A DNA stretch of 49,470 nt from the NCBI GenBank assembly GCA_900128395.1, contig LT649273.1, positions 1 through 49,470 on the forward strand, written 5' to 3'. Shown piece after piece: positions 1 through 49,311 of this stretch. The notes under the pieces are model-generated. The model was not told where the DNA came from. It worked only from the letters and a program-made list of their open reading frames with translations, and did not search any database. Made by a program: the position numbers and the translations under genes. Origin of the DNA: Stramenopiles sp. TOSAG23-2. Its lineage: Eukaryota. Position 1 is the first letter of the stretch; each line of letters opens with the position of its first letter.

Positions 1-25
1 TTAGAATAATGAAAATCGTGTAACA

Positions 26-19009: not shown

Positions 19010-22000
19010 ATGGCGAATTATCAAAAGGAAGATAAAGAAGTTGCAAATATTGCAGCTGTACAAAATCAAGATTATAATGACAATGTCGCACCAGCAGAAG
19101 CAAGATTCATGACGGAAAGGGGCAAACAAACGGGGGAATTATACTATTTTGGTGTGTCATCAGAGGACAAACCAACTTTGCTAAAAGATGTTAGAGGTGC
19201 ACGTGTCTCTTATATTGCACCAGGTGACTCACATATTATTGTAGTTACCGACGAAGGTGGTGGCCGTGCTAGGTTTGTACCAGACGTTCCTGAAACAGAT
19301 GGCAAAGAAGAAATATTATCAACTCTAGCTGAATTAGAACGTGGTAGTGACGGTATATGCCGCGCTGCAGTGGGATCGAACCACGCAATAGTATCAACAT
19401 CAGGCGGCGAAGTCTTTTCATGGGGACGTGGAGATCAAGGTCAATTAGGTTTACCACACGCATTAGGATCACAAACACCACAAGTTTTAAATAATTTAAG
19501 AGGTAAAAATGTAGTAGAAATTGCTGCTGGTAGCGAACATAGTGCAGCATTGACTGTTGATGGAGGCGTATATTGTTGGGGTTCCAATGCAAAAGGACAG
19601 TGTGGCTTAGGAAAAGGCGTCCCATTTTCAACAGTATTAACACCAAGGTTTGTTGCTTCTTTCCTTGGAGTGTCTATTAAACGTGTTAGTTGTGGTGCTA
19701 GATTTACCGCTGCAGTTTCAAGTGAAGGTGAAGTATGGACTTGGGGGGAAGGTCAATGTGGACAATTAGGATGTGGACGACATACAAAAAAAATGACACC
19801 TCAACTTGCTGCTGCAAAAACTTTGTCAAGTGATAATAATGGTTTCGTAGATGTACAATGTGGATGGTCACATTGTTTAGCGTTATCTAGTGCAAATGAA
19901 ATATTTGCATGGGGGTTAAATGCACATGGACAATTAGGTTTAGGTGATATAAAAGCACGAGATGTACCCCATAAAATAGAAAGTGTAAGTGGAGGAACTA
20001 ACACAGCTGCTGAGTTTAATCAAGTGGCATGTGGTCAAAATTATAGTGCTGCATTGTCATTAAACGGTGAATTATATGCATGGGGAAGTAAAGGACGTGG
20101 ACATGGTGGCGGGAACCATGTACTCACCCCAAGGGAAGTTGAGCTTACATCTGGTTCAAGTTTTTCATTTATTGCATGTGGGGAAACGCATATCGTTGCA
20201 TTTGCACCTACTGGTATCCGTGAATTGTACCCAAGTGCTGGTCCAGTTGATGGTGGTTCTCAATTAACAATATATGTTGATGGTGTATGGCAATGTGATG
20301 AATTATTAGTACGATTTTTTGCACTTGTCCCAATAGAACGGGATGAGGATACTACACCAGTTGATAACCAAAACGAAGAAGAAGAAGTTGAAATGGAAGA
20401 AATTGTTGAAATACAAACAGGTTATTACGATGCTGAAATTAGTGCAGTGAAATGTACGACACCACCATGGTTCCCAGCTGAAAAGGTTACGGTGGAAATC
20501 ACTGTGAATGGATTTGATTACACTGCAAATGGATGCCAATTTTCTTATTACAACACTCCAGAAATTGTCGATGTCTCCCCGACTAGTGGTCCAATTAGTG
20601 GCGGATCTGTATTAACAATACGTGGTAATAATTTTATCGAAACGGATAGTTTAAAAGTAAGACTTCGAACAATTTTACCAGATGGTGCAATCGGACAACC
20701 AGAAACATTTATTGTTGATGCGAAATATATATCAGGTGAATGTATTGAATGTGTTACTCCACCAATAACATTGGAAGATGATACATTAGCATATGCATCT
20801 GTTTCAGTCGACGTTGCTATTAACGGTTTAGATTTCACCGACGCAGGTGTAACATTTGATATGTTGAATATTCATCTAACAAAATGTGTCCCTGAATGTT
20901 GCTCAAGAGAAGGTGGTAAAAAAATTATCATACATGGAACCCATCTATGTGAAGTAGATGAATCTATATTAGTTAAATTTTTATTTCCAGATGGACGATC
21001 TCGCATTGTTACTGGGGATTTGGTTCCAAATACAGGTAAAGGTAGTGGAACGAATGAGGAAGGAGGAGGAGGAGGAGGAGAAGATGAAGTAGTAGTTGTT
21101 GCTAATGAAGATGATTTCATAGGTATATCATGTACTGTTCCACCACTTGATGGTAGTAAAAATCCAGAATTGCCAAGTGGTATTAGTCCACCAGAAGATT
21201 CAGCAGATGCTTCATGGTCAAGTGAGTATGGTAACGAACCATTAACTGTGCAAATTTCAATGAATGGAGGAGTTGATTTCATTGCAGATGCATTAAGTTT
21301 TACGTCATATTTAGGATTTAGCAATGGGTTTACCACTAGTAGAAGTATTGTTTCTGCATTAGGCAACACACCATTTGAATTGAAGCAGATTATTCCTGAT
21401 GAACCAGTAGTAGTTGAAGAAGAAGAACAACAACCAACAACAACGGAAGAAGTGGTTGCAGTTGAGGCACAAGAAGAAAAAGGAGATGAAGGAGAAGGAG
21501 ATACGGTTGAGGAAACGGAAGTAACGGAAGACCAAGAAGAAAATGGTGAGGAAAATGCAGACACAGAAGAAAATGGCGAAGAGGTATCAAAAAATGAGGA
21601 AGATGAGGCGGAAGAAAAAGCAAAATTTGCACAGGAATCGATGGATAATTTCCAAGCACCAGTGGAAGAGAAGAAAAAACCATTGATACCAAAAGCATGG
21701 TTATTTTCATGTGCTGATACAAAAATTCGTTTTTCAGGCAATGGTGTAGATATGATAGTCCCTGCTGAGTTTGATGTTGAAAGTGATTGTTTAAGATGTA
21801 TTGTACCAGCAATACCAGGTGCAGGAGATTGGGAACAAGCCATGTTAGAAAATATACAGAATCCACCTGCCGAAGAAGAAGGCGAAGAGGAACCAACAGA
21901 AGAAGGTGAAGAAGGTGAAAATAGTACAGCATCAAACTTGCCAAAATTAGACAAACAAACTTTAACGATCTCATTAGCAGTTGATGGTGCAACATATATT

Positions 22001-22345
22001 GATGTTGGCACAATCAATGCATTACCAATGCCAGTTGTAAAAAGTATTGACCCAGTAGAAGAAGTAGCAATAGGCGCAGGAGTTGTATTAGGTTGTAATA
22101 CATCCTCATTAGGTGGATCTGGTGTTCCAATCACCGTACGTATTAATCATATCAAATCTGGTGAATCGTACGATGTTGCTGGTAAAACTACTGGTGATGG
22201 TATTGAATGTAAAATACCAAATATTAAATACAATAGTGGTGGCGATGACGAGCTTGAATGTACAGTTAAAGTTTCTGTTGATGGGTTGAATTTTTCAATC
22301 TGGGAAACTAAATTTAAATTAATCCCAATTGAACCAGAAGAGTAA
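19010..22345 (+). CDS. RCC1-repeat beta-propeller + IPT/TIG domain protein with Glu-rich tracts
   Basis: Repeated VFSWGRGDQGQLG / VYCWGSNAKGQCG / IAAGSEHS motifs. IPT repeats (PSAGPVDGGSQLTI, VSPTSGPISGGSVLTIRG, ISMNGGVDF). Confidence 0.88.
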   Translation: MANYQKEDKEVANIAAVQNQDYNDNVAPAEARFMTERGKQTGELYYFGVSSEDKPTLLKDVRGARVSYIAPGDSHIIVVTDEGGGRARFVPDVPETDGKEEILSTLAELERGSDGICRAAVGSNHAIVSTSGGEVFSWGRGDQGQLGLPHALGSQTPQVLNNLRGKNVVEIAAGSEHSAALTVDGGVYCWGSNAKGQCGLGKGVPFSTVLTPRFVASFLGVSIKRVSCGARFTAAVSSEGEVWTWGEGQCGQLGCGRHTKKMTPQLAAAKTLSSDNNGFVDVQCGWSHCLALSSANEIFAWGLNAHGQLGLGDIKARDVPHKIESVSGGTNTAAEFNQVACGQNYSAALSLNGELYAWGSKGRGHGGGNHVLTPREVELTSGSSFSFIACGETHIVAFAPTGIRELYPSAGPVDGGSQLTIYVDGVWQCDELLVRFFALVPIERDEDTTPVDNQNEEEEVEMEEIVEIQTGYYDAEISAVKCTTPPWFPAEKVTVEITVNGFDYTANGCQFSYYNTPEIVDVSPTSGPISGGSVLTIRGNNFIETDSLKVRLRTILPDGAIGQPETFIVDAKYISGECIECVTPPITLEDDTLAYASVSVDVAINGLDFTDAGVTFDMLNIHLTKCVPECCSREGGKKIIIHGTHLCEVDESILVKFLFPDGRSRIVTGDLVPNTGKGSGTNEEGGGGGGEDEVVVVANEDDFIGISCTVPPLDGSKNPELPSGISPPEDSADASWSSEYGNEPLTVQISMNGGVDFIADALSFTSYLGFSNGFTTSRSIVSALGNTPFELKQIIPDEPVVVEEEEQQPTTTEEVVAVEAQEEKGDEGEGDTVEETEVTEDQEENGEENADTEENGEEVSKNEEDEAEEKAKFAQESMDNFQAPVEEKKKPLIPKAWLFSCADTKIRFSGNGVDMIVPAEFDVESDCLRCIVPAIPGAGDWEQAMLENIQNPPAEEEGEEEPTEEGEEGENSTASNLPKLDKQTLTISLAVDGATYIDVGTINALPMPVVKSIDPVEEVAIGAGVVLGCNTSSLGGSGVPITVRINHIKSGESYDVAGKTTGDGIECKIPNIKYNSGGDDELECTVKVSVDGLNFSIWETKFKLIPIEPEE

Positions 22346-23311: not shown

Positions 23312-24346
23312 TTACCCTCGTCGTTGCCGAACGTTTCTCTCTTGATCATTAGCATTTGATGTAGATCGACTACGACCTCTTTTTCTTCCATTATTATTAT
23401 TATTATTGTCAATGCTTGCATTATTTTGAACATTACTGTTATTATTATTAATGTTAGCTGCTGCTTGTTGCCTTTGTTGTTGTTGCATTTGTTGCATTTT
23501 TACATGAAAATCAAATGCACCATATATTAAACCATAACCACTTCCACCAAAACCACCTTGACTACCACGTGGACCACCAGGCCCTTGTTGTTGTTGCATT
23601 TGTTGCATTTTTACATGAAAATCAAATGCACCATATATTAAACCATAACCACTTCCACCAAAACCACCTTGACTACCACGTGGACCACCAGGGCCAGATC
23701 CACCTTTGTTTCTATCTTGTTTCTTATCTGGAATAATTGGAACTTTACCACCACGATTTTCTGCACGTTTAATTTCAACACTTTTACCTTCTATAGCATG
23801 TCGATGTTTTAATACCTCATCAATGGTATCTTGGAGTGCAAATGTTACGAAACCAAAACCACGTGAGCGCCCTGTTTGTCTATTTTTTGTAATTGTACAT
23901 TCATCTACAGCACCAAACCGTTCAAAATATGCAATAATACCATCAGTTGTTGTTGATAATTTAAGACCACCAACAAATACTTTTCTTGCATTTTTACTAC
24001 GTTCTTCCTCAACTTTTTTTTGGAAAATTGGATTATATTCTGGTACAGAGTGTGCTACTTTTCGATTGTAATTGTTGTTGTTTCCACTACTACCTACACC
24101 TTTTTGTGCAGGTTTTAATTCTACACGTTTCCCATCTATTGTATGTTCCATTGGCATGACTTGCCTTACTGTGTCCACAGTCGTAAATTGAACAAAACCA
24201 AAACCTCTTGATTTTTGTGTCATACGATCGAACACAATGTTTGTTGCTACCACTTCGCCATAGCGACTAAAATATACTTTTAATGAATTTGCAGAAGTTA
24301 AATGATTCAAACCACCTACAAATATTTTTGCTGCTGGGTCCTCCAT
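23312..24346 (-). CDS. Two-RRM RNA-binding protein (hnRNP A1/Musashi/DAZAP1-like)
   Basis: KIFVGGL / RGFGFVQF and KVFVGGL / RGFGFVTF RNP2/RNP1 motifs, with a Gly/Gln/Asn-rich tail. The true ATG (MEDPAAK) is at 24346. Confidence 0.93.
   Translation of the reverse strand: MEDPAAKIFVGGLNHLTSANSLKVYFSRYGEVVATNIVFDRMTQKSRGFGFVQFTTVDTVRQVMPMEHTIDGKRVELKPAQKGVGSSGNNNNYNRKVAHSVPEYNPIFQKKVEEERSKNARKVFVGGLKLSTTTDGIIAYFERFGAVDECTITKNRQTGRSRGFGFVTFALQDTIDEVLKHRHAIEGKSVEIKRAENRGGKVPIIPDKKQDRNKGGSGPGGPRGSQGGFGGSGYGLIYGAFDFHVKMQQMQQQQGPGGPRGSQGGFGGSGYGLIYGAFDFHVKMQQMQQQQRQQAAANINNNNSNVQNNASIDNNNNNNGRKRGRSRSTSNANDQERNVRQRRG
23474..23692. repeat. In-frame coding tandem duplication, period 111 bp (37 aa)
   Basis: GPGGPRGSQGGFGGSGYGLIYGAFDFHVKMQQMQQQQ occurs twice. 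Confidence 0.9.
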
Positions 24347-24471
24347 TATATTATTATTATTTATTATTATATCGTAATAATGCAAAAAAAAAATAAAATA
24401 ATAATTATCAAAAAATAAAAAATGAAATTTTAAAAACTGATTAGACGTAACTATCTGTAAAGTAATATTAT

Positions 24472-24704
24472 AAAACAAAATAAAATAAGTACACGAGACG
24501 ACTATCTAAAAAATTATTATAAACAACAAAGATGAACATCTATAAAATAAATATAGAAACAACAACTATTACAATCTCATTTATCAAAACAAAATAAAAT
24601 AAGTACACGAGACGACTATCTAAAAAATTATTATAAACAACATAGATGAACATCTATAAAATAATATAGAAGCAACAAAACTATTACAATCTCACATTTA
24701 TCAA
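24472..24704. repeat. Imperfect tandem duplication, period ~114 bp, upstream of the RRM gene
   Basis: aaaacaaaataaaataagtacacgagacgactatc... starts at 24472 and 24586, with a few substitutions and indels. Confidence 0.85.
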
Positions 24705-29567: not shown

Positions 29568-30316
29568 ATATATATCTATCTTATATACAATATATTTCTG
29601 TGCTACGTATTAGAAGTATACGCACCTTTTCTTGTTCTGCTTCTCTGCTTTCTCTGCTTCTGCTGATTTCCAGATTCACTTCCTATCATCAACATTAGAG
29701 GTAGCTGTACTTGTATTAATTTGTGCCACATCTCCTCCTCACAAAGTCAATTTTTAATGAAAATATTTATCGACGAAACCGAAATGACAATTATTGTATA
29801 TAATAATTTTATAAAATATAAAATATCCGAATAATGTATGATATAATTTATACAATATATAGCAACTATACATTGAGAAAATACCATCAAAATTCCAATA
29901 AATACATGATGATAGATGCAAAAATCTGATATGAAAAATGAAATTATTCCATTCGCACATTCCTCGATTTCATCATGATTAACATTCATTTTAATTTTTC
30001 GTCGATAAATAATAATATTTTCACCTCCTGAAATCTTGTTTTTATTAGTGCTATGTAGTGCTAAATTTATCGATAATCCTTGGACAAAACATCATATATA
30101 TATTTACTTAATTGGTTCTTAATCTATACCTCCCAGACCTCAATACATTGCAATTCGAGATATTTGGAAAGAAAAGACATTATATATCATATTCTTTTAG
30201 ATATATATATATATATAGATATATATAAAAATAGGAATTATTTTTTGGGGGTCAGTATCTTCAGTCGTCTAAACAGAAACTATTATTTTTAACATATAAT
30301 TTCAATTGACAAAATA

Positions 30317-30529
30317 ATGGCAGAAATGATGAAAGAAAAGAAAAAGAAAAAAATGAAAAAAAAGAAAAAAATGAAAAAACAAGAAGAAGTAGTAATGGTA
30401 GTAGAACATAATGATGTTGATGATATTAAAAAAAAGAAAAAAAAGAAAAAGAAATCAAAGGATAAAAGAAAAGAGAAATCGCCACCATCATCAAAAACAA
30501 CCACAAAAATAAATAATACATCTTTCTCT

Positions 30530-30566
<37 letters not shown>

Positions 30567-30589
30567 GTAATGTAAACAATTCCACAACA

Positions 30590-30677
<88 letters not shown>

Positions 30678-31417
30678 GTAATGTAAACAATTCCACAACA
30701 AACACGAACAATAATAACAACAATAATAACAATAATAATGTTGATAATAATAATAATACAGAAAAAAAGAAAAAACGTAAACGAAAACCAAAAAAGAAAA
30801 AGAAAAAACAAAAGCCGGTGAAATTCAATACATCGTTAGTAAAAATCAATAGAATGAAAACAGTTATTGTAAATGGTATGCCACATGGTACTAAAGTGAA
30901 TAATGTACGTAAATTTTTTCGACCTTGTGGTGGTATACAATATATAACAATGCAAAAATTTGATGATACTGGTAAAACAAGAGGAATGTGTACAATAACA
31001 TTCAAAAGTTTAGTTGCTGCACAAAAAGCAATTGGATTGACTGGTAAATGGTGGGGTAAACGTTATGTTGAAATTAAACAATACATCGGATTAGGTGATG
31101 CATATACACCACCAGATGTTAATGACATGCCAGAGGATTGTTATACAATTTATGTTGGCAATTTAGATTTTAAAGTTGAAGAAAAAGATATAAACGATGC
31201 ATTCATTGGTTGTGGGGAAATACAAGAAATTCGTATAGCAACAGACTCTGATGGAAATAAACGAGGATTTGCTCATATAACATTTGCAAAACAGGAAAGT
31301 GTTAAACAAGCAATTTTAAATTTAGCAAGTGGTGATTATTTATTAAAGAATAGACCGATTAAAATCGATTATGATATTCCACATACGGATTTACCATATG
31401 ATGGTGAGGGAGTGTGA
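30317..31417 (+). CDS. Two-RRM nucleolin/Nsr1-like RNA-binding protein with Lys-rich and poly-Asn N-terminus
   Basis: TVIVNGMP / RGMCTITF and TIYVGNL / RGFAHITF motifs, plus RPIKIDY. Confidence 0.88.
30532..30759 (+). repeat. (AAT)n microsatellite encoding poly-Asn, with an internal 111-bp-period duplication
   Basis: Long aat runs. agtaatgtaaacaattccacaacaaa occurs at 30566 and 30677. Confidence 0.95.
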
Positions 31418-31818: not shown

Positions 31819-34800
31819 CTACACTTTCAACTTTTTAATATTTCTAGTATCTGTAGCAGTAGCAATCATATCAGTTTTTACTTCATTTCTAGTAGGATCT
31901 ACTTGATTTTCCAGCTCAACACCATTTTGTTTACATTCATCAGTCATAATTTGCAGTCTGTTTGGATCTGGCCAACCATGATTTTGTGGACCACCACTAG
32001 TTTGGGTTTTCTGGTGTATTCCTCCCCAAATTACACAATTATCCATTCCAGAGGATACGCTTTGCCCGACAACAAATAAAACCCCTTTCATGAATGCTTT
32101 CTTTAATAATTCAACCATGGTAATGCCTTCTCTTGTATTAGGATAGTAACAGCGCCTGGTCGTGCCACGATAATTTTTGCCTGGGTTTTTCATTCTACTG
32201 CCTTGTATTGAGTTGTTAAAAACGTAAGTTATTTCATAAGTTCCTTGTCCAGAAGATCCACTGCAATGTAAATTTTGTAATAATTTTATTGACATTGACC
32301 CCGAAGGCTGAGCACCATTTACATTATTAAAATGGTGACTACACAAAGGACACCGGGCTTTATTATCCAACCACCTCTTCAATGCTTTTTTTTTAAATAC
32401 ATGACCACAAGGCAATTTTACAACACCAATCTTCACTCCGTCTCCGATCGGCTGAAAGTCAAAAATACATTTTTCTTGCGGATCATACTCGGGTGGATAA
32501 ACACGTTTCCATCTAGCCACGATGTCCCAATCAATACTATCCTCGTATCGAAAAGTTAAAGTATCATTGGTAACTTGATGCCACTTCTTCCTCTTCTTTT
32601 GCTTGTTTTTGTTGCAATTGCTTGCATTATCAATTTTTCTGCTAGAAAATGTATTGTTGTTGTTATTATTGTTACCAGTTGTTGTATTATACAAATATGG
32701 TGACCCTACATTTGACATTGCATTGTTGCGGATACTTGCAACATGTCCATTAAACGTATTGTTATTGCTATTTTCAAAATGGACAACAAATATTGGCAAT
32801 TGATGCGCAGTTTTATTAATAACTACAACATTGGAATTATTATATGTCACACCGCTATTGTCCATCAAGCATGCAAATACAATCATTTTTAATTTCTTTC
32901 CTTTACAATAATTCATTGAAATCTGTGCAGATGTGCCAAAATATTCTCCCGCACCATGCGCCTGGCCATGGCATCCACGTTTTTGAGGATCCATTCCATT
33001 CTTACAAATATTAGCAACATTTTTCGTATCTGTCCCATGGAACATGCATTTTATTACCTCACTTGGCACACTTTGCCATGATTCAACAAAATTATTATAA
33101 AGGTTTTGGCCCGGTAACGAATAAATATTCTTTTCAACGCGCGTTATTTTGTACTGAGGGCATGTTGCTTGAAATTTCGTTAATAGAAAATTACCAATCT
33201 CTTTTCGTTGTATCTGTAACAAGTCAAGCACACCATGGCATTCATATTGCCCTACATGAGCTTCGCCACCACATTGGACACAAATTGATGATTTGCATAC
33301 AGAACACTTATTGCCATGTTTAGAATTGAAATCAATCGTTGGTTTTGGACCAATATGATTTGCATTGTGCTGTATCCCATTTATGATGTTCATTCTAGTA
33401 TTTAAACATGTATCACTTTGACACCACCATAAATTGGGATTTAAAGATACCCGCTTTTCAACTAATTTTCTACGTAACGATTCATACAGTATTTTTTCAT
33501 CATTCTTTTTGCCATTGGTAATAAACATTGAGTTTCCAGTGACACGTTCCCCTACAAACAACACCTCTATATCTTCCTCTTGAATTATAACATCAAATTT
33601 GCAATGACATAAATGTTTGCACTTTTTGTCCGATTTATTTTTACAAATATATTTTTCAACGGGGCATCGAAGACCTTTCACTAAAGGCATTTGCAATAGG
33701 GTGCTTAGCTCATTTACAAAGTGATTTTTCAAACATTCTTTACAGCAATGCAATTCATGATAGTTGCGCTGACCAATCGTGCATGAAAAAGAATATGGTA
33801 CCTACACGTAATAGAGAGTATATATTTACAAATTTTTATTTCCACGCATAAATTATATTTAAAGTTTGTTTAGATATGCATATAGACTAAGCGGTTAGTT
33901 AAATACTAGAAATGATAATGTGTGTTTGATGGTACTTACAAAATGTTTGCATAAAATACACGAAAAAGCAGTTGATAATAAATTTTTCCACCTCGACACA
34001 CTTTCAATACAGAATTTACGAATACCCGATGCGTAAGTACCACTGTTACGAATTAGTGCAATGACATTGTTACTTTCATCTAAAGATGACGGCTTGCTCG
34101 TTAATACTGTATCCAATTTTGTTGAAACCCAGATATGTTTATGACGAATAACTGAGGCATAATCAAAATATTTCATACCACGTATTATATTTACCGCCAT
34201 TAAAATATCTTTAATATTTTCCCACTTCTTCATAGTTATCTTAAAAGTAATATTTAGGTCCCTTTCTTGAAACAAAAATTTAAATCCATCGTTTCGTCGT
34301 TCTTCTAGCGATTTGCGCTTCTTCGGGACATCTTCATCAACAATTAACCCAATAGAATGCGCAGCATATAAATCTATAGGGTTATAATTTACGTAAATAT
34401 TTCGAGGCGCTATATAATCTAGCAAAAACGTCTTGTTAAAATTGACAGCCTTGAACAGATTCTTCCATGCAAACACTATAGACTCGACAAGACTCTCAAA
34501 TAGGTGGGTAACGTTTTCTATTTTCGATGTTAGCATTGTAAGTTCCAACTTTAAGTCTTTAATTTTTGTTTCACTGTAATCATCAAACATAAATAAATGT
34601 GCTTGGTGGTTTGAAGTCGCACTAGTCACATCGCACTTTGATATTTCGCCATTGATTATACATTTTTTTAATTGGATGAGTTTTTGTAAGTTCGTCATTG
34701 CCTCTTCACGTAGACTAATTTTGCGTTTACAAGTTTCTATTTCCAGATTTAAATGTTTGTTATGGATAGATGTTTCTGACGTGTATGCATTCAGATTATA

Positions 34801-37800
34801 TTCGCCTAACGCTAGCCTTACATTTAACAATATGTTATTCAAAAAGGCACATTCATTTTTGTGCCCATTTAAAGCATTTACAGTTGTTTCAACAAAATTT
34901 TTTAAGTTTGTTAAAGGAATGGTTTGAACGTTTTGGACGTATCCAACTAAAAGTTCCGGTTTGAACGGCGGCCGTTGGAAATGATGCACAAATTTAAGAT
35001 CTCTGACAATTATAATTTTGCCATCCGTTTTAAGCAGTGAAATGCTTTCTATCGAGTCTTCTTTCCAACTTGACCCAGTAGCTACACCTGATGATTTCAA
35101 TGCAATATCTGAAATAGTAAATTTGGGTTCACGTGAATTGCTATTACAACCTGAATAAAAAACTACATCTCCCTTGGAAAATTCTCGCATCTTTAATGCA
35201 GCGGGAAAATCGAAGTATAACTTGTATCGAAAATTACTTAGTGATTGAATTCGTTCTTCTGAAATATCAGATGGTGTATCATTTTGTATGATAAAGTTCT
35301 TCTTCCCGGCTAGTTTATTGGAACCGCTAAATGCAAAAGATGTAAAATATGCCTGTATAGACTTGATACAAATGTTAATTTTTGCAGTTCGCTCTATTAC
35401 GGACTTAGATAGCTCCATATGTTCATTTAATAGAGAATCCAAATCTTCTTCAACAACCATGCCAAGTTTTGCCTCAATTGTTTTCGGGTTATCTATACAC
35501 ATTTCATTTTTTCCACTGCTCGTTTCCATTTCTAGTGAATACGACTGGTGTTGACTTTTATAGTTCTCGGCAATCTCTGGCGTTACTGTTTTAAATGCAC
35601 TGCTACACTTTTCACTATGATCAAATAAGTTCTCCGCTCGAATCGCTTGTGGAATGACAAATGCGGCCCCGGAACCTTCCTTCCAGTTTACATCATTGTC
35701 ATCATCTTCACCACAAACTAATATGTTATGAACTTTGTGCTCTTTTTGATATCTAGGATATTCTTTGCAAAGCGTTGCAATCCATTCTGAACAACATTTG
35801 CGTACTGAAGTTGTTAAATCCAAGTTGCGTTGTAAATCTATTTTATGTAATTTGAAGAGAAGCTTTGCCCATAAATTGAAATTCATATTTGCATTACAAA
35901 ATGCATACAATAATGCACTACAAGCTTTTGCAAGAGGTGTATATTTTAAAAAGACATACTCGCTTGAAAAGAATTTTAACGATGTCTTGGCTTGCGAAAC
36001 AGTTGCTTTCTTCTCTTTTAGGCTGCTAAAAGGATAGATGTCCGCTAATTTGATCATCATGTCCATCCCAGTCACCGCATATAATCGAAAATTTAACGAA
36101 TTGTTTATATCGATTTCACAATCGTAGACGTCTTCATGTGAAACCTTATGTTCCAATTGAGTAATTATATCTTGTACACATAATCTCATATCTTTATTAT
36201 CTGACAATTTTGATGCCAATTTAATACAAACCAGACATGTAAGCTCTATTTTCGATTTTGCGATACTTTTTTGTGACAAATATCGATCCAAAATATTAAT
36301 AGCTAGTGCTAGAATTTTGCAGTCAAAACATTTCCATTCAAGCATATATAAGACCGTCCTATTACGATATTTTGGTATGAAGCCATCCTTCTGTATTTGT
36401 TCAATATAACAAGGATTCGGCTGGGTTCTTTTATATATGCTTAGCATTGTTTTTAAGCCTGACCCTTCTAATTGTCGCTGCATAGAAGCATTCAAATATT
36501 TGACAAGTTTACTAATCCCCATTATAGTATCTTTTTGCATTTGTGATTTCTTAAGACTATCCAACAAATTGCCTTTTTTATTATCACCATCGATATTAAT
36601 TGGTAAGCATGACATATTTTGCTTATTAAAATTAAGGCATTCGTACGATAATGAATACAAATCGTGCCTGGCTCTATATGCAATATTTGTCTCAAGAATG
36701 ATATATTTTACAATATCTGTAACTGACATAATCTTGTCATTTGCGAAAGTGGATATTGTTGCCGTCGTCGTCGTCGTTGTAGTGGTGGTGGTGGCCGTCG
36801 TCGTTGTAGTTGTTGTTGTGGGCATTGTCATGTTCGATAACGAAGTTGAAGTCTCGCTGCTACGAATAGCATGAAGCAAATGTATGTATAAATGTTTTCC
36901 AGTTATTTTTTTAAGTTCTATACTCGAATCAAACATTCGTATTGGCAAACATACTCTATGCCATTTCAAACATGCTAAATGTTCTCTTTCTTTTGAAGTG
37001 AGATTTCGAATATTGCGATATGCATTTTTTAATCCTGATTTATATAACAATTTTTGCACAAATGCTTGAATATTTGCTTTATTAGGAAATTTGATCATGA
37101 CTAAAATTGCTTGTTTTACAGTCATTTCGTCGCAATACACATTATTCAACACTTTAAATACATGTTCGTGCAAGAAAATATCACTTTCATGCTGAAGTGC
37201 CGATAAGATACATTGGATTCCACCTAAAGTCGCAAAACGATCTTGTATAGCTTTGTTATCATGACAAATGCTTGCCAATGCCTCGCAAGCATACTTTTGA
37301 ACATTACCATCTTCTACATGCTTATTCATTGCTGCTATAATGCACTTTAAGCCACCTAAATGAGCAATACGATCCTGAGCGGTTTTATCATTCCAACACA
37401 TTGAGTTTAATGCTTTGCATGCATTCTTTTGAATACTACTGCAATTATTTATATGGTTATTCATAGCTGCGATAACACATGTTATACCGCCCAACTTTTT
37501 AACAGCTTGTCGTATGGCTTTGTCACGCCAACTAGCGTGCATCAATGCTTCGCATGCATCTTTCTGAATAGTACCATTATTAGAATGATTCTTCATTGCT
37601 GCTATGATATATTTAATACCACCTAACTGATGATGAATACGACCATCTTTGTCACTCTGACACATGTACTTCAATGCTGTGCATGCATTTTCCTGAACAG
37701 CAACATTGTTTATATGATTACTCATCGCTACTACGATGCATTTCATTCCGCCTAAACTTGCAACCTGATACGTGCTTTTGTCGTCGTAACACACCCAGCT

Positions 37801-38979
37801 TAATATTTTGCACGCATACTTTTGAACATTACCATCTTGTTTATGATTATTCATTGCTGCAATAATGCATTGTAAGCCACCTAAACTAGCAATATGATCT
37901 TGCTTGACCCCGAAGCTCAAAGAGATATCAATCAATACTTTACATGCGCAAGACTGAATATCTATATTATCTGTATGATTATTCATAGCTTCAATAAGAC
38001 GTTCAATAACACTACAAATATCAATTGTTCCAATAGATTTCTGTATTTTATTAATACAGGATTTTGTGAAATTGCAATATTCAAAATACATCATCATGAT
38101 ATAACAGCCATGGCGTTGAATATTTAAGTCAGCTTGATGTAAATGCATTAGCTTCAATATCAATGCAATCACGTTTTCCTTTTCAAATACTAGAAAAATT
38201 TTTGGAATAGTTAGAAATGCTCGTAACGCCAACAAGTTGCATGCTTGATAGTTAGGTTCGGCCCTGTCAGTTCGAATAGCAGCAATTGCAGTACGAATAC
38301 CTTCAAACTTTATATGGTTGCGAATAGAATACCCCCGATAAATTTTTTGTATTCTAATTGCCGCTATAGTCGTTTTGTCTTTTGCACCTCCGATATGACG
38401 ATATTTTTGAAATAACGTTGAATTTGATTGGATGTTAAACAAATTTTTTACAGGCATGAAACTGTTTTTCATCAAGTCAATTACTTTCGTTTCATACAGA
38501 ATATACCATAATTCTGTTGGAACTCGTGTGCGTTTGTAAAGTTTTTCGTGTAATTCTTTCACAGTAGTAGTTCCAGATATATTAAATTTCAGCATTTTAT
38601 TGCAGATTGTTTGAACAAAAATTTCAATTTCTTCGTCTTTTGGACAACCCTTGGCTATAACATCGGTCTTGGATACACTCCCGGAATCATCTTCCATTTG
38701 TTTTCCTTTGTTAAATTCAATCATATTAGCCGCTCTTAATATAAGACGCCGCCACCAAATATACTTTGCCTTTGTATATTCATCTTCTTTCGCCTCTACC
38801 TCACTGCATGTCACATATGTTTTTCCAAGTTCATCTTTCAATGCCTTTTTTCGCGCACGAGCTTTTTCCGCTAAACCTCGTAAAGATAAATGGGTTCCAT
38901 ACTGGCAGTTTGCCGTAAGGATCTCACTTTTACCGTTGTTTGTTTTAATTGTTTGAAAATTGTTGTTTGTATTCATCAT
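31819..38979 (-). CDS. ~2340-aa multidomain protein: UBL-IQ-ARM repeats-cyclin-RING-IBR-PARP-like ART-RING-Deltex C-terminal; complement(join(31819..33801,33940..38979))
   Basis: UBL IEIFVQT...RHIGG. IQ AAIRIQKIYRG. About 8 ARM repeats (LGGLQCIIAAMNNH...VQKYAC). Cyclin box (LAINILDRYLS...CIKLASKL). RING spanning the intron. IBR (WCQSDTC...CSVC...CVQCGGEAH...C). ART (FHGT...GAGEYF...SMNY). DTC (GAQPSGSM...GIHQKT...HGWPDP). Confidence 0.82.
33802..33939 (-). other. Spliceosomal intron (138 bp, phase 0)
   Basis: Minus-strand GTAAGT donor at 33939 and GTGTAG acceptor ending at 33802. Splicing gives CILCKHF|VPYSFSC...HCCKEC...CPVEKYIC, a complete RING. Confidence 0.82.
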
Positions 38980-39283
38980 ATTTATTTTGTATATATGATA
39001 TATTTTATATTTGTTTTCGATCAATTGTCTTTAGTCGTCTACGTTCTACGTATCAATTTTATTATTATTTTTTAGACTTTTATTATTATTTTGTTTATCA
39101 AATTAAGTGTTTTATATAAGATTTTTATTTTATTTATTTTGTATATATGATATATTTTATATTTGTTTTCGATCAATTGTCTTTAGTCGTCTACGTTCTA
39201 CGTATCAATTTTATTATTATTTTTTAGACTTTTATTATTATTTTGTTTATCAAATTAAGTGTTTTATATAAGATTTTTATTTT
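38980..39283. repeat. Exact tandem duplication, 2 x 152 bp, abutting the start codon of the giant gene
   Basis: 38980-39131 is identical to 39132-39283. Confidence 0.9.
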
Positions 39284-42386: not shown

Positions 42387-43533
42387 AAAAATGTTTTTTA
42401 TATGACTGAACACTCATTAGATTTTACGAAATTCGTACCAGTTCGTAATATTATCTAAAATCATAATATAATACCCGAAGCTTCGATAAAATAAAAATTA
42501 CGTACGGCGGAATATTTTTTTTATATTATATTTTACGACGTATAAAAATAAAAAAATATTGAAAAAGATTATATGTATATTAATATAAAAAAATCTTCCG
42601 TATTATTTATGATAAAATATCATACTAAATTAAACTAATGGATTAATATTTATGATTAGTTAAATTTTACAACACTTTGTAAGTTATAATAATTGTAACT
42701 TCTCGTGGCGAATACTATGTTCAATACTTCTAACTCAGAGATGCAGTTTTAATCCTACTATTAATAGTAAAGGTCTAAAATGCACGTCTGCACTCTTCAT
42801 TCCAGTCCAGGCACTCCAGCACTCCAGCACTCAAGCACATATCCTCGTATGTTTATCAATTAATTCCAATTAAGTGTTTTATAGAATTTTTTTGTACTAA
42901 GTGCTAAATTGATTGCAAAAATCCAAAATTTTTTGGATAGAATTTTACTATATAAAAGTATATTATTTTACAATATAAGTAAGAGAAAATTAAGTTGCAA
43001 AGGGTTTTTTTGTGTAAAAATTTGATACTTTTATTAGTGCTAAAATAGCAGGTAAATTTTGTGATTTTGATGGAGACAAAAGTTAAAATTATTTTGTGTT
43101 TTCGCTACATTTTGTGTTTGAGCAAGTATTTTTACTAACAATTTGCTTCTACAATAGACACAGGAGGGCTTAAAAAATGTGCAAGAAAAGTCTAAAAAGT
43201 CATCGGTGGAACAAATTGCCGTGGCATGTGCATGGCTATTTTTTTCACTATAAAAAACCTTGTTGTTGTTTGGTTTTTTTTTCAATCTAAATCATCATCC
43301 AAAAAAAACCAACAACATACAGAGGTACTTAGACTAATCTGCACATCTGGTAATATATAGTCCAGAAAATAGGAATAAATAAATTAATATTAATAATATC
43401 ACACTAACACTGTCTATGTCTGTATAAAGTATTGTATCTTCCCCATAAATCAAAACATAAACGTAAGAAGAATTCGTTTCGACAATATACAGTAGACCAA
43501 CCATAGGATAGAAAATTTGGCATTGGTGACAGT

Positions 43534-46500
43534 ATGTCACTGCCAAATCTTTTTGATGAGGAACTGGGAGAATTTAACTTACAGGAAGAATTACATGACG
43601 GCAATCTTTTGGATATGGAGGAGAGTAACTTTAATGCTATATTCGATAATTCCCAGAACTCAAATCTATCACGTTCTGAAAGTGGAGGGTCATTAAGGAT
43701 GGCATCAAACGCTATTACTACTACAACAACTATAACTACTACTACTACTAATAATAACGATAATAATAACAATAGCGATAATAATAACAATAGCAATGAC
43801 TATAATAATATACAAGACGACACTGGCAGTTTGAAATTGCCCCATATTTTGGAAATAACAATTTATGAAAAAACGACTACAACCACCGGTTCAAGTAATG
43901 GTGAAAGTACTTCAAGTGGAGGTGAGAAGGGTACTACTTTTAATAAAAAAATTACTGAAGTTACAGATGACTTCTATCCTGAAAAACAAAGAAAGAAAGA
44001 AACAAAAGAGCGTATTTTCAATGTGTTAGCAAAAGCTCGTAGGTGTAGACTTAAACGAATTTCTGGAGAAACAGGCGGAGTATATTGTTGGAGTTTGCAA
44101 GATGGAAAAAATGTTACTCTGAATTCGAATACGCAAATCAAGTTAAATAAAGAAATTAAACTTCCAACTTCTTTATTTAAAAGTAGTGTAACAAGGAATT
44201 TACGAATATTTCATTTGTCTAAAAATACTGAAAAGAAAGAAAAAGTCCTAATTAAAATTGATTTTATTCCCGAATTTTATTTTGATGCTTTCAAAGTTTA
44301 TCGGAAACGGGGGAAAAGTAATAATTCTAAAAGGCCTGCGATTGATGATATAAATAAATCGCCTACAAAAACATTGAAAACCGATGGTGTCATGATCAAT
44401 TTTGAACATGGTGAGATTGGTAGTGGGATTCCGGAGGATTCTCCAATCCAAAAAGTTTCTGATGGTGGATTTTCCAAGTATCATTCAATTAGCGCGAATA
44501 AAGTAACTGGCATCAAAGGTAATTTTATTACCCTAGTAGCCGATCAACTGGCTGTATTGAGCGATCCAAACTTTAAAATTTTGATATCAAAATGTGATAA
44601 TAACATTTTGAACAAAGTTGTGAAATTAAATTTGTACAATTATGAATGGAAGATGAAAGCCGAAAGCAGCAATGGCGCTAAAGATGCTGGACCAATTGCA
44701 ACAGATTTATGGAAATTAGGTAAGGAAATAAACATTCCTTTAGTTAAATTTGAAAATGATGAAGTGGAAGTGACGGAGGAAAACATTAAAAGACGGGCGA
44801 TGGATGGTAGACGTTTGGTTGTTAATTCAAATGCACTGAATACATTAAATTTAAAATGTATTAAGGAATTAAATGAGAATCAAGATAAATTTTCAAACCA
44901 GCAAAAAGAATTAGTCATAGCTTATAGAAGTAAATTGGATAACGTTTATCGTCGCTTGTTGCCCTTTGAAAGCCATGTTGAAGATAATCGAATGAACGTC
45001 GAAGGCAATAAAATGCAGATTGCAATGTTAGAAAAACGCGTTGATAATCTTGAATCAACGAAAGTAAGCACAAGCAATATAAATAAAGTACAAGTACCTC
45101 CAGGTATTATCATCCTGTGTATTTCACCAAACGAAAAAGTGGCCGTTAAACAATTGTTTGAAAGTGAAGCAAAAACAATTTCTGAACATACTGGAGCTAT
45201 TGTTTACAGTGGAAATTTTGAAGGTGCACTGTCAACTATTGTATCTAACAAAAATTCCATTAAATGGGTGCATTTTATTGGACGAGAAACAGAGGCTTTA
45301 TTAGTTGGAGAACGTGGGCATGAAGTAGATGAACAAAGAGCAGGTTTTGTATTTTTTGCAGGGAATAATTACGAATATGTCGAAAAGCGGAAACTTATCG
45401 ATGCGCTATGCAGTTTAAAAGACAAAATTAAATTAATATCTGTCAATGCTGCCAACACTGAAGAATTAGTCAATGGTTTCTCGGTTGGAGGTATCGAAGC
45501 GGCATGGGGATGGACTGGTCAAATAAATGTTGAAGCTGCAAAAATATTTGGGGAAGAATTTTACAAACGGCTCAATGGAGATGCAATGGGAAATACATAT
45601 GATGCCTATAGGCAAACAATTTCTTTTGTGGAAAACATAATGCAAATTCAAGATGTAGTTTCTAAGAAACATTCCAAAGGCACTAGCAATCTGATTCATC
45701 CAAAGTATTTATTCGGAAACCTAACAAGAAATTTAGAGACAAGTTCTTCCAAGCAATATGACCAGACTTTAGTAGGATTACCTTGTTATATGGAAAACCA
45801 AGCATGCTCATTACTCAAAACAAAACTTTGTCCGCAAAATTTTCAACATAGAATATCAAGTACATATAATCAATTTCACAAAAATTCTCGCAAATGGATA
45901 TTTCAGGAGATACAAAGGTGGAATTCACGGGAAAAAAATATTACTGAAAATAGTCGCATGCTTATATTATCTGGTATTGGCGGCATTGGTAAAAGCACCA
46001 TAGCAAGTGTGCTTGCAAAAGGAAAAAACCCAGCAAATATCGACGTAATTGCGCATTTTTTTTGTAATCATTCGATTGAGTTGAAAAAAAGACCATATAA
46101 TGTGTTAACAACTATTGCATTTCAGCTGGCACAGAAGATAGTTTCGTATCGGAAAAAGTTAAGAGAAGTAATGTTTAATATTAATGAAAATATGAAGTTG
46201 GAAGATCTATTCGAATTATTGTTTCAGCCACTACATGAAATTTGGAGAATAACAGCAATTGATTGTAATCGTTCAGTAATCTTAATTGATGGATTAGATG
46301 AATGTGGCCCAACTGATGAGAAAAATAATTTATTGAATTGTATACAAAAGCATTTTCATAAAATGCCAGAATGGCTTTCGTTTATCGTTACCACACGCCC
46401 TGAAGATTATACTATGAAACGTTTGAAACATTTTGGACCTATCGAGATATGCGCAGAGTCGGAAAATAATATTATTGACATAAAAAGCTATTTACGCTTC

Positions 46501-49311
46501 AAATTAGAGGAGCAAAATGTAAAAATGAAGGATCTAGACAAAGGGATTGAAATTCTTGTATATAAATCTGAAAATTTGTTTATCTATGCACAACATATGG
46601 TTCAGGAAATAAGTAAGAAAAACAACGTTTCGTTGGAAGAATTAGCTAAGTTTCCAGATGGTATTAAAGGCTTTTATGAAGACCAATTTGGGCGAATACT
46701 TGGGAACAGAACGAAACATTTTGATTTAGATATGAATTATAATGATTGGATTAGCTCTTGCGAATGGAACATCATTCAAACTGCAATGATTTCACAGGAG
46801 CCATTGAATTTAATGCTGTTGAAAGGCTTTGTCGATAAATTCCCTGAAAGTGAGAGAGAGGTGCGAAAATTAAAAGAAAATTTGTCTATATTTTTCCCAA
46901 TTCGAAATGGTACTATTCAAATTTATCATAAAAGTCTCAGCGAATGGCTTACGGATGAAAACCGGCGAGAACATGATTTATACGTAGATAAAAAAAAAGA
47001 ACATGCTAAAATGGGGAACAAGTGCATTGATATTATACACCGATGCTTGAAAAATGGTAATGCTGCAGAAATGGAGATGTTTCAATATGCCCTGAGGCAT
47101 GGAATCAAACATTTATGCATGGGAGATTTGGGGAAAAAAGCGAAAAATCTCATGTTTGAATTTAAATGGTTATTGGAAAGAGCAAAAATAGGCCCTGCAA
47201 ACGAATTGATCAGCGATGCAAACATCGCATTAGAATGCAATAGTAAGGATAAATCATTTATGTTGTTACGAAATGCTTTAAGATTATCGCAAGGTGGGCT
47301 GGAGATGGACCCATTACAAATTGCAGGGCAATTAGTTGCCCGTTTGATGAGCTTTGATGGTAAAATGGAAGAGATTTCCATATTATTAAAAAGTATAAAA
47401 GAATGGAAAGGACCAGAAGATCGAAAGGGATGGTGGTATCCAGTCGCTCAGACTTATCAAGTCGCTGGAGGACAATGCGAAGCAACATTATTAGGGCATG
47501 AGGATGGAGTATTGAGTGTAGATATCAGCCATGATGGCAAGAACTTAGCATCTGGATCCAGCGATGGGACTGTAAAAATATGGAATGCACAAGGTGGAAT
47601 ATGCATAACCACATTGATGGGACATTTTGATGAAGTCAATTCAGTTGCATTTGATGCATCCTGCAAGAAAGTAGTATCAGGTTCGAAAGACAAAAGAATT
47701 ATTGTTTGGGATTTAGTTTTGAATAACTATATAGTATTGGGAGATGGATCGAAGTGCCATTCGGATGAAGTTGCATCAGTCTCTTTTAATTATGATGGAA
47801 CAATGGTTGTTTCAGGCTCAAACGATAAAAGTATTAAAATATGGGATGTAGAGACTAGAAAATGTATTTGTACGTTCAGTGGCTGTCCTAGCGACTACGG
47901 CGAAATAACAGAGACAGAGAATATTAATAACAATCATGATGGCCATTCAGAAGCAGTATTATCTGTTAAATTTAGTAGCAATGGTACGAAGATTTTATCA
48001 AGTTCGTATGATGGAAGTATAAAAATCTGGAATGTAGCAACAAAGCAATGCATGTGTACATTAGATGAACATACTGATGCTGTTAATTCAGTTTCATTTA
48101 GCACTGATGAAATGAAAGTAGTATCCGGTTCGGATGATGAAAGCATAAAAATATGGAATATTGCAGATAAAGAATGTATACATACATTAGAACACGATGA
48201 TCTATGGTCTGTTACTGCTGTTTTATTTGGCAATAACGATAAAATAGTTTTTTCATCATGCTGGAATTGCATAAAAACATGGGACGCACAGACTGGCAAC
48301 TGTTTGTCTACCTTTAATGGACATTCCGGTAGTATCAATACCATTGTACTTAACCATGACAATACACAAATTATTTCAGGTGCGTACGATAATAGCATAA
48401 AAATATGGACAATGATGGAAAATACAAAAATGGATATTACTATACCTGATAAGCATTCAGATTTTGTCAGTCTAGTTGCATTTAATAGTACCAATACCAT
48501 GATCGTATCGTGTTCACATGATACAAATATAAAATTATGGAGTAGTGAAAGTGGAAAATGCACAGCTACGCTATTTGGGCATTCAGATTGGGTCAATTGT
48601 GTTGCATTTGACGATAGTGATATGAAAATTATTTCAGGTTCAAATGATACATTTGTGAAGATTTGGGATGTGAAAACAAAACGATGCCTTTTGACATTAA
48701 TCGGACATGCAAGTTGGGTTGTATCAGCAACATTTAATGCAGATGGTACTAAAGCAGTATCAGCTTCAGATGATAATGGTATAAAAGTATGGAATATACA
48801 AAATGAAGGAAATTGTTTGTATACCTTTAATAATGTACCCCGATGCCCCCCAAGTCTTGACGGCGATGGGGAAAAAGTCAAAAAATTTGCTTATTTAACA
48901 CCACTAGTCGTTTTCAATCTGGATTCTAAAAAATTGTTGCATATTTCAATTGATAGCAATGGTAACAATGTAAAAAATATATTTGATTTAACAAAGAAAA
49001 ATGAAAAATGTATTTTTACTGGAAACAAGTTTCTCCCAGACAATGTTAAGGAAGACTTTTGGAGGAGGTTAAAAAAAATAACGCAACCGCTTGATATGAT
49101 GGAATCCATCTTCAAAAAAACAGCATCAGATAATCATGGACAAGAAAATACACATAATAATAATATTGATATCTTGTCTAATACGATTGGACTAGCGGCA
49201 GATGGAACAAATACAAATCCTGATTTGTTTTTTAATCCCAACAATCTACTTCTTGAACATGCAGTAACAACACATGGATCAAATGTACATATTCTTAAAC
49301 GAATGTTTTAA
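43534..49311 (+). CDS. NLR/STAND protein: N-terminal region, degenerate CHAT-like domain, NACHT NTPase, WD40 repeats (HET-E/NWD-like)
   Basis: Walker A GIGGIGKS (45973), AHFFC, Walker B VILIDGLDE, FIVTTRP and IYHKSLSEWL. About 10 GH...SGSxDxxIKIW WD40 repeats from ~47480 to ~48830. Confidence 0.92.
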   Translation: MSLPNLFDEELGEFNLQEELHDGNLLDMEESNFNAIFDNSQNSNLSRSESGGSLRMASNAITTTTTITTTTTNNNDNNNNSDNNNNSNDYNNIQDDTGSLKLPHILEITIYEKTTTTTGSSNGESTSSGGEKGTTFNKKITEVTDDFYPEKQRKKETKERIFNVLAKARRCRLKRISGETGGVYCWSLQDGKNVTLNSNTQIKLNKEIKLPTSLFKSSVTRNLRIFHLSKNTEKKEKVLIKIDFIPEFYFDAFKVYRKRGKSNNSKRPAIDDINKSPTKTLKTDGVMINFEHGEIGSGIPEDSPIQKVSDGGFSKYHSISANKVTGIKGNFITLVADQLAVLSDPNFKILISKCDNNILNKVVKLNLYNYEWKMKAESSNGAKDAGPIATDLWKLGKEINIPLVKFENDEVEVTEENIKRRAMDGRRLVVNSNALNTLNLKCIKELNENQDKFSNQQKELVIAYRSKLDNVYRRLLPFESHVEDNRMNVEGNKMQIAMLEKRVDNLESTKVSTSNINKVQVPPGIIILCISPNEKVAVKQLFESEAKTISEHTGAIVYSGNFEGALSTIVSNKNSIKWVHFIGRETEALLVGERGHEVDEQRAGFVFFAGNNYEYVEKRKLIDALCSLKDKIKLISVNAANTEELVNGFSVGGIEAAWGWTGQINVEAAKIFGEEFYKRLNGDAMGNTYDAYRQTISFVENIMQIQDVVSKKHSKGTSNLIHPKYLFGNLTRNLETSSSKQYDQTLVGLPCYMENQACSLLKTKLCPQNFQHRISSTYNQFHKNSRKWIFQEIQRWNSREKNITENSRMLILSGIGGIGKSTIASVLAKGKNPANIDVIAHFFCNHSIELKKRPYNVLTTIAFQLAQKIVSYRKKLREVMFNINENMKLEDLFELLFQPLHEIWRITAIDCNRSVILIDGLDECGPTDEKNNLLNCIQKHFHKMPEWLSFIVTTRPEDYTMKRLKHFGPIEICAESENNIIDIKSYLRFKLEEQNVKMKDLDKGIEILVYKSENLFIYAQHMVQEISKKNNVSLEELAKFPDGIKGFYEDQFGRILGNRTKHFDLDMNYNDWISSCEWNIIQTAMISQEPLNLMLLKGFVDKFPESEREVRKLKENLSIFFPIRNGTIQIYHKSLSEWLTDENRREHDLYVDKKKEHAKMGNKCIDIIHRCLKNGNAAEMEMFQYALRHGIKHLCMGDLGKKAKNLMFEFKWLLERAKIGPANELISDANIALECNSKDKSFMLLRNALRLSQGGLEMDPLQIAGQLVARLMSFDGKMEEISILLKSIKEWKGPEDRKGWWYPVAQTYQVAGGQCEATLLGHEDGVLSVDISHDGKNLASGSSDGTVKIWNAQGGICITTLMGHFDEVNSVAFDASCKKVVSGSKDKRIIVWDLVLNNYIVLGDGSKCHSDEVASVSFNYDGTMVVSGSNDKSIKIWDVETRKCICTFSGCPSDYGEITETENINNNHDGHSEAVLSVKFSSNGTKILSSSYDGSIKIWNVATKQCMCTLDEHTDAVNSVSFSTDEMKVVSGSDDESIKIWNIADKECIHTLEHDDLWSVTAVLFGNNDKIVFSSCWNCIKTWDAQTGNCLSTFNGHSGSINTIVLNHDNTQIISGAYDNSIKIWTMMENTKMDITIPDKHSDFVSLVAFNSTNTMIVSCSHDTNIKLWSSESGKCTATLFGHSDWVNCVAFDDSDMKIISGSNDTFVKIWDVKTKRCLLTLIGHASWVVSATFNADGTKAVSASDDNGIKVWNIQNEGNCLYTFNNVPRCPPSLDGDGEKVKKFAYLTPLVVFNLDSKKLLHISIDSNGNNVKNIFDLTKKNEKCIFTGNKFLPDNVKEDFWRRLKKITQPLDMMESIFKKTASDNHGQENTHNNNIDILSNTIGLAADGTNTNPDLFFNPNNLLLEHAVTTHGSNVHILKRMF

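Follow-up and report, generated by a model that had tools for sequence, protein, structure and literature searches.

Does a single protein carry both an enzyme that attaches ADP-ribose and a ligase that joins ubiquitin to it? The question is raised by a locus on contig LT649273.1 of Stramenopiles sp. TOSAG23-2 (assembly GCA_900128395.1), of which positions 1 to 49,470 were analyzed; this whole stretch is referred to below as the window, and all coordinates are window positions. The original prediction placed a PARP-like ADP-ribosyltransferase (ART) core and a Deltex-type RING-DTC module in one chain at 31819-33200, and both are indeed encoded together. All of the motifs on which that prediction was built lie inside a single unbroken minus-strand frame at 31819-33801 (660 codons from stop to stop, with the terminal stop at 31819-31821): MFHGT at residues 253 to 257, GAGEYFG at 283 to 289, SMNY at 295 to 298, NVVVI at 324 to 328, IHQKT at 595 to 599, and GGPQNHGWPDP at 603 to 613. 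Within this frame, the Pfam profiles for PARP (PF00644; 43.5 bits against a cutoff of 26.7, E = 3.3e-11, residues 228 to 305) and DTC (PF18102; 130.6 bits, E = 5.4e-38, residues 496 to 628, profile positions 2 to 133 of 133) both score above their cutoffs. All of the computational checks suggested along with the prediction favored it. Judged from the sequence, such a set of motifs and profile matches in one frame is far beyond chance. On balance, and with slightly more than even confidence, we favor the reading that this C-terminal cassette would act as a cis-coupled ADP-ribose writer and ubiquitin ligase within a giant protein. The domain architecture, folds, conserved residues, splice, and recurrence of the fusion are documented below; from these and from characterized relatives we infer the activities and their coupling.

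The interval first proposed does span the PARP, RING, and DTC domains, but the frame extends 600 nucleotides (nt) upstream of it and forms the last exon of a larger gene. According to the open frame, Pfam, and orthologues, this exon (31819..33801, minus strand) encodes the tail of a RING1-like finger, an IBR domain, a short PARP domain, a linker, a RING-like finger, the DTC domain, and a short tail. A 1711-codon open frame at 33895-39030 adjoins it in the same orientation. Between the two, a splice-site scan and boundary check place a 138-nt intron (33802..33939, minus strand; GTAAGT...TGTAG), with the donor GTAAGT at 33939 and the acceptor TGTAG ending at 33802, and its removal preserves the reading frame. 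The upstream exon runs from the first in-frame ATG (33940..38979, minus strand), and the spliced frame from that ATG at 38979 comprises 2340 codons; this start is predicted, and the true 5' end may differ. Pfam matches in the upstream exon, all on the minus strand, are a ubiquitin-like (Ubl) domain (38479-38622), an IQ motif (38311-38364), ARM/ataxin-10-like repeats (37144-37776), and a cyclin N-terminal box (36082-36447); the ~700 codons 3' of the cyclin box in this exon matched no Pfam family. The PARP-RING-DTC cassette is thus the C-terminal tail of a ~2340-amino-acid multidomain protein, not a free-standing protein, and the order of its domains is Ubl, IQ, ARM repeats, cyclin box, RING1-like finger, IBR, short PARP, one-zinc RING-like finger, and DTC.

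Expression data bear on both the splice and the cassette. Contigs from four marine RNA runs were placed on the region, and one of the four crosses the splice site, the other three having no contig there. The bridging contig of run X1 is 157 nt long with a depth of 4; on the shorter side of the gap, it extends over 34 letters. It skips exactly 138 nt, and the ends of the gap read CT..AC on the plus strand. That the splice is seen in a single short contig of a single run counts against the joined gene model. RNA contigs with no more than two differing letters each also cover the PARP, RING-like, and DTC parts; these derive from marine and seawater polyA metatranscriptomes.

Only two close relatives of similar length were found, P0001 (99% identity) and P0002 (82%; named "deltex" in its source). 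Identity to P0002 amounts to 89.8% in the PARP domain, 91.9% in the DTC, 85.0% in the IBR, 77.2% in the RING-like finger, and 65.2% in the linker. A search among longer proteins (2937 candidates) retrieved no full-length homologue, and one based on the short-PARP alignment described below (A1), among proteins of 1083 to 3090 amino acids, retrieved only P0152, which has the PARP domain alone. These relatives allow the simplest alternative to be weighed, namely, that the gene model is an artifact, with PARP and DTC belonging to different genes or the frame being open by chance. The database calls for P0001 and P0002 both begin at an internal Met, and the lack of a full-length model among the longer proteins points the same way. 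However, the 660-codon frame contains no stop, a second organism retains it at 82% identity and shows stronger conservation in the domains than in the linker, RNA contigs cover the parts in question, and the same fusion is present in other single frames. We regard an artifact as highly improbable.

The short PARP-type ART domain occupies residues 189 to 345 (32767..33237, minus strand), an assignment that draws on Pfam, phmmer, AlphaFold (AF2), Foldseek, and family column counts. Against sequences of the Protein Data Bank (PDB), phmmer matched PARP14 (E = 6e-7) and, more weakly, catalytic fragments of PARP12, PARP15, and ZAP. The AF2 model of the domain has a mean predicted local distance difference test (pLDDT) score of 90.1 and a predicted template modeling (TM) score of 0.87. 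Foldseek aligned it to PARP12, ZAP/PARP13, PARP14, PARP15, and PARP10 with a probability of 1.00, E values of ~1e-9 to 1e-7, and TM scores of ~0.7. The modeled domain adopts the same ART fold as the H-Y-hydrophobic mono-ADP-ribosyltransferase (mono-ART) PARPs 10, 12, 14, and 15, with which it shares the H, G, Y, and Y motifs and a non-acidic third triad position. Residues of the nicotinamide pocket and triad are kept at H255, G256, Y287, S295, and Y298. An ART core is therefore present as predicted, but not a full-length domain: at ~157 residues it is ~40 residues shorter than those of PARPs 10, 12, 14, and 15 and lacks the long acceptor-loop segment of solved PARPs.

The shortened form is not peculiar to this gene. 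When 1.84 billion representative proteins were searched, 3019 matched at an E value of 0.001 or less. Among the best 150 of these, 17 proteins match residues ~185 to 347 at 42 to 51% identity, and one more, P0043, matches residues 228 to 344 at 39%. Alignment A1 comprises 19 rows, i.e., these 17 proteins, the window, and P0002; P0043 was left out. Ten positions in its first part (H255, G256, T257, Q280, G283, G285, E286, Y287, F288, and Y298) and eight further on (A310, D314, G317, V327, Q334, L335, P336, and F338) are invariant in all 19 rows, which define a short PARP family of ~150 residues. The Glu directly before the triad Tyr (E286, 32944-32946, minus strand), part of a G-E-Y-F motif, is found in 19/19 rows, whereas aligned solved PARPs have Ser, Thr, or Val there.

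The original prediction held the third triad position to be hydrophobic rather than Glu, and the family bears this out. Val325, within NVVVI, occupies this position by assignment from the strand order of the model and the spacing from a conserved Q-L-P, rather than from a residue-level structural alignment, and the column holds Ile (n = 11), Val (n = 5), Leu (n = 1), Cys (n = 1), or Met (n = 1) in the 19 rows. It never holds Glu, and the domain is not of the H-Y-E type that forms poly-ADP-ribose. In the model, the two final strands read VVVI (325 to 328) and QLPIFVVHF. A phmmer search with the 52 C-terminal residues of the domain against the PDB, made to place the third triad residue, returned only an unrelated phosphoketolase (E = 0.38), and in an A1 profile search the alignment to known structures ended before the strand in question. 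Taken together, the sequence and model indicate a domain of the H-Y-hydrophobic, mono-ART kind.

Whether this domain still transfers ADP-ribose is where the preferred reading meets its strongest rival. Several findings weigh against an active writer: the PF00644 match spans only profile positions 30 to 109 of 199, the acceptor-loop segment is cut to ~12 residues between the strands KMIVFACLM and VVVI, and Val325 is placed by position. The truncation and the partial profile match would fit a pseudo-enzyme that binds NAD+ or ADP-ribose without transfer, like PARP9 and PARP13, leaving the RING-DTC as the only catalytic module, acting on ADP-ribose made by other PARPs or on free NAD+ or ADP-ribose. 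The non-Glu third position suits this alternative, as does the presence of ZAP/PARP13, which is inactive, among the best structural matches; for the human DTX3L-PARP9 pair, moreover, a review calls the catalytic role of PARP9 unclear. Known inactive PARPs, however, have lost the His or a Tyr, and here the NAD+-contacting His, the Gly, and both Tyr residues are invariant in 19/19 rows and kept in P0002, in which the PARP domain is 89.8% identical. Moreover, H-Y-hydrophobic PARPs are active mono-ADP-ribosyltransferases. We consider a pseudo-enzyme a doubtful explanation, if one to be taken seriously.

Several features of free-standing members of the short PARP family were noted in passing. Upstream of the PARP domain, 10 of 18 carry a motif resembling a ubiquitin-interacting motif (UIM; A-x-x-L/M-Q-x-x-F-D-x-E, an ad hoc pattern), and 7 of 18 carry one resembling a SUMO-interacting motif (SIM; V-I-D-L-T plus an acidic run). 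The bearers include P0029, P0054, P0074, P0087, P0091, P0099, P0102, P0107, and P0111. These sequence motifs hint at a ubiquitin or SUMO link of short PARPs even where no DTC is present. A metagenome locus, L035 (4719-5911), encodes a short PARP with 72% identity; an intron interrupts the domain, and the contig ends within a Gly-rich tail. The best scores from the ESM Atlas, 0.78 and 0.83, fall under the threshold of 0.9 and serve as leads only.

Pfam, phmmer, Foldseek, and residue mapping place the DTC domain at residues 495 to 629 (31915..32319, minus strand), including R549, S581, W592, H596, H608, and E622. Among PDB sequences, phmmer retrieved DTX2 (3.5e-26), DTX3L (2.7e-24), and DTX1 (9.7e-22). 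An AF2 model of the RING-DTC region (pLDDT, 89.2) superposes on the RING-DTC of DTX2 with ADP-ribose (6y3j; E = 4.3e-17) and also matches DTX1 with NAD, and its DTC superposes on that of DTX3L (3pg6) with a TM score of 0.93, a root mean square deviation of 1.4, and 38% identity.

In DTX2, ADP-ribose is contacted by R535, S567/S568, W578, H582, and H594 (Ahmed 2020), and H582/E608 form the catalytic pair (Zhu 2022). Through a gap-free phmmer alignment, R535 maps to R549 of the window protein (Arg in 42/43 relatives), S567 to S581 (Ser in 43/43), W578 to W592 (Trp in 38/43), H582 to H596 (His in 42/43), H594 to H608 (His in 31/43), and E608 to E622 (Glu in 41/43). Only S568, a main-chain contact, aligns to a different residue, V582. 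To judge from these residues, the ADP-ribose pocket, whose loss would have spoken against the original prediction, and the catalytic His-Glu pair are both intact. A predicted complex of the short PARP with the RING-DTC scored 0.08 (mark, 0.34), which weighs neither way.

Between PARP and DTC lie an Asn/Lys-rich linker (residues 346 to 437; 32491..32766, minus strand), which has no family match in Pfam, and a RING-like finger with one zinc site (residues 438 to 494; 32320..32490, minus strand), characterized by alignment A2, regular-expression matching, AF2, and superposition. The RING of the original prediction is present as a finger but not as a canonical two-zinc RING, for the ligands of one site only are kept (C465-x-H467 and C484-x2-C487), plus C445. 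The canonical C3H[CH]C3 pattern failed, the ligands of the other site having been lost, and Pfam RING profiles match only the second half (residues 459 to 487; zf-RING_2, 29.8 bits against a cutoff of 27.3). In addition, a Ser stands at the linchpin position after the last Cys.

These departures speak against recruitment of a ubiquitin-conjugating enzyme (E2) and would fit a protein in which the finger has given up that role. The DTC would then only read ADP-ribose, tethering the protein to ADP-ribosylated targets, whether its own or others, and a source of ligase activity would have to be sought in the upstream RING1-like/IBR pair or in a partner. Against this, the strict RING pattern is failed by 33 of 43 DTC relatives and met by only 10 (alignment A2), and a U-box-like first half, (D/C)-P-I-T...P-L-G-D-G...V-V-x-L-x-C, is common by eye to ~30 of the 43 nearest. 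Because most of the nearest DTC relatives share the one-site form, the finger is a conserved type rather than a decayed version in this gene. The Ile after the first Cys, a Trp in the helix, and the Pro of C-P-x-C are the usual E2-contact positions, and all three residues are present (Ile446, Trp477, and the Pro). The prediction of the finger exceeds a pLDDT of 90, its fold can be superposed on DTX RING-DTC structures, and the His-Glu pair, required only for ubiquitin transfer, is kept. Sub-optimal linchpins are in any case a feature of DTX RINGs (Zhu 2022). A pure reader thus seems to us improbable, more so than an inactive PARP, and ubiquitin transfer by the RING-DTC remains the better account of this half.

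Two further fingers precede the PARP domain. A RING1-like finger is split by the intron (33643..33960, minus strand): C-x2-C ends the upstream exon, the other ligands and a final C-P-x5-C open the last exon, and the splice junction rebuilds the Cys/His pattern. Its spacing, read by eye across the splice, is irregular, the distance from the third Cys to the His being longer than canonical. The IBR domain follows at residues 109 to 188 (33238..33477, minus strand). It is borderline by score (PF01485, 25.8 bits against a cutoff of 24.3), yet by eye it displays the full C6HC pattern, C-x4-C-x32-C-x2-C-x4-C-x2-C-x4-H-x5-C. Residues 1 to 190 gave no phmmer match among PDB sequences at an E value of 1 or less. 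The arrangement recalls RBR ligases (RING1-IBR-RING2), but no RING2/Rcat follows: the IBR ends at 188 and the PARP domain begins at 189, which leaves no room for an Rcat, and Pfam finds no other finger. The protein thus lacks the catalytic Cys that forms the ubiquitin thioester and is not a complete RBR ligase.

The fusion of PARP and RING-DTC recurs in other distantly related proteins and in both orders, which strengthens the Rosetta-stone argument of the original prediction. A blastp comparison of four parts of the cassette against 152 collected proteins found both modules in five (P0001, P0002, P0032, P0040, and P0057). Of the remainder, 127 have the RING-DTC only, 1 has the RING-DTC plus linker, and 19 have the short PARP only. 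By Pfam, P0032 has PARP and then DTC; P0040 likewise, with its PARP at 23.8 bits, under the cutoff; and P0057 has a RING, DTC, and TAZ finger followed by PARP. On metagenome contigs, 110 stretches encode relatives of the short PARP; 80 loci were kept, of which two near-identical ones (L056 and L057) contain both modules. Their single 671-codon frame encodes a canonical RING, a DTC (108.8 bits), and then a PARP (40.8 bits), and the L056 frame is 41 to 45% identical to P0057 over both modules, in the same reversed order. The fusion thus comes in two architectures, with PARP either preceding a one-zinc RING-DTC or following a canonical one.

A quick tree of the short PARPs grouped the window with P0002 (support, 99) within a 16-row group (support, 86) whose remaining 14 rows have no RING-DTC match. 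L057 fell outside this group on a long unresolved branch and was not joined to the window. The tree omits 29 of the 80 loci, in which the match did not span query residues 55 to 155 or contained a stop (L035 among them), and 7 duplicates. That the two fusion orders arose independently is argued chiefly by their opposite arrangement and by the difference in RING type. The same surveys also supply an objection to coupling in cis. No RING-DTC lies within the surrounding DNA examined at 78 of the 80 short-PARP loci, and among the 152 proteins the RING-DTC occurs without PARP in the 127 and the 1 counted above. Because most short-PARP loci have no DTC and most RING-DTC proteins have no PARP, the two modules usually work apart. 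As a separate observation, the first ten DTC matches made up of multiple stretches contained no PARP (0/10); all ten carry two or three tandem RING-DTC units. Tandem proteins include P0003, P0005, P0006, P0008, and P0010, and some also have KH_DTX3L and PARP14-type RRM domains.

Cis coupling would proceed as follows. With NAD+, the short H-Y-hydrophobic PARP would mono-ADP-ribosylate a target or the protein itself, and the DTC of the same chain would bind that ADP-ribose in its conserved pocket. The RING-like finger would recruit a ubiquitin-charged E2. H596 and E622 of the DTC would then activate the 3' hydroxyl of the adenine-proximal ribose, and ubiquitin would be esterified onto ADP-ribose. 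Ester formation at this 3' hydroxyl is known from human DTX enzymes and has been shown for DTX2 (Zhu 2022). The N-terminal ARM and cyclin-box parts would select partners, and the RING1-like/IBR pair, lacking an Rcat, may provide another docking site for ubiquitin-charged E2 or for ubiquitin.

The closest known counterpart is the human complex of DTX3L with PARP9 (and PARP14), which likewise combines a clade-3-type PARP and a RING-DTC ligase linking ubiquitin to ADP-ribose or NAD+. According to a preprint, human DTX3L and PARP9 are separate chains encoded by neighboring genes. In the window protein, by contrast, the modules share one chain, macro and KH domains are absent, the short PARP keeps its His and Tyr, and the RING has one zinc site. 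DTX1, DTX2, and DTX4 (WWE-WWE-RING-DTC) have the same RING-DTC module, ADP-ribose pocket, and His-Glu pair; here, Pfam finds no WWE and the finger is non-canonical. Presumably, the ADP-ribose comes from the PARP domain of the same chain instead of being read through a WWE.

PARP catalytic domains fused in cis to domains of the ubiquitin system have been described as U-box-Macro-PARP in Dictyostelium and UBCc-PARP in fungi (Citarelli 2010; Perina 2014). Those fusions differ from the present one in having no DTC, hence no module that joins ubiquitin chemically to ADP-ribose. The word "Deltex" occurs 0 times in the main text of these two surveys of PARP evolution. Literature searches found no paper on a PARP-DTC fusion; supplements were outside their scope, and earlier cataloguing is possible.

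The window has a GC content of 0.26 to 0.39 and frames of 1000 to 1900 codons that are open without introns, and its best word share with marine polyA metatranscriptome runs is 0.23. An AT-rich genome with few introns, together with contigs of marine polyA metatranscriptomes that are nearly identical to it, makes the protist of the original prediction plausible, and the host is likely an intron-poor unicellular marine eukaryote. Scans of the window with Rfam and for tRNAs returned nothing. The neighboring genes were surveyed in passing. A 1934-codon frame at 43507-49311 (plus strand) encodes an NPHP3_N (NACHT-type NTPase) domain and, after it, numerous WD40 repeats, a STAND/NLR-like architecture. 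At 8770-11166 (plus), a 798-codon frame has the unusual pairing of an FAD/NAD(P)-binding Rossmann domain with an AKAP7-type 2'-5' RNA ligase-like (2H phosphoesterase) domain. Another gene of the ubiquitin system near the locus, at 6921-8048 (minus), encodes a ubiquitin-like domain and a Wss1-like WLM metalloprotease. Two long intron-free frames contain Chlamydia-PMP-type repeats with an ephrin-receptor-like Cys-rich module (5-3196, plus) and an RCC1 propeller joined to IPT/TIG domains (19004-22345, plus). RRM proteins are encoded at 23312-24505 (minus), also matching the PARP14 third-RRM model (40.7 bits), and at 30293-31417 (plus), with long poly-Asn and Lys-rich tracts.

Beyond this gene, we put forward a broader proposal that we hold only tentatively and think less likely than not. 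PARP-DTC fusions may be self-contained machines that write mono-ADP-ribose, immediately cap it with ester-linked ubiquitin, and arose more than once, and in both orders, in unicellular marine eukaryotes, and the short PARP with G-E-Y-F may be a distinct ART clade specialized in feeding Deltex-type ligases. Deltex ligases were only recently discovered to ubiquitylate ADP-ribose, in work on human enzymes that cooperate in trans with PARPs (Ahmed 2020; Zhu 2022). A single chain that combines writer and ligase and recurs in both orders is classic gene-fusion evidence for one pathway, and finding such chains beyond the common model organisms suggests that the pathway is older or arose repeatedly. 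Both domains are much studied, but the one-zinc RING-like finger and the short PARP family are forms of them that have received little description, and the cassette, being compact, lends itself to study of the coupled reaction. If the proposal is true, hybrid ADP-ribose-ubiquitin signaling would be an old and widespread eukaryotic device rather than a metazoan or vertebrate immune invention.

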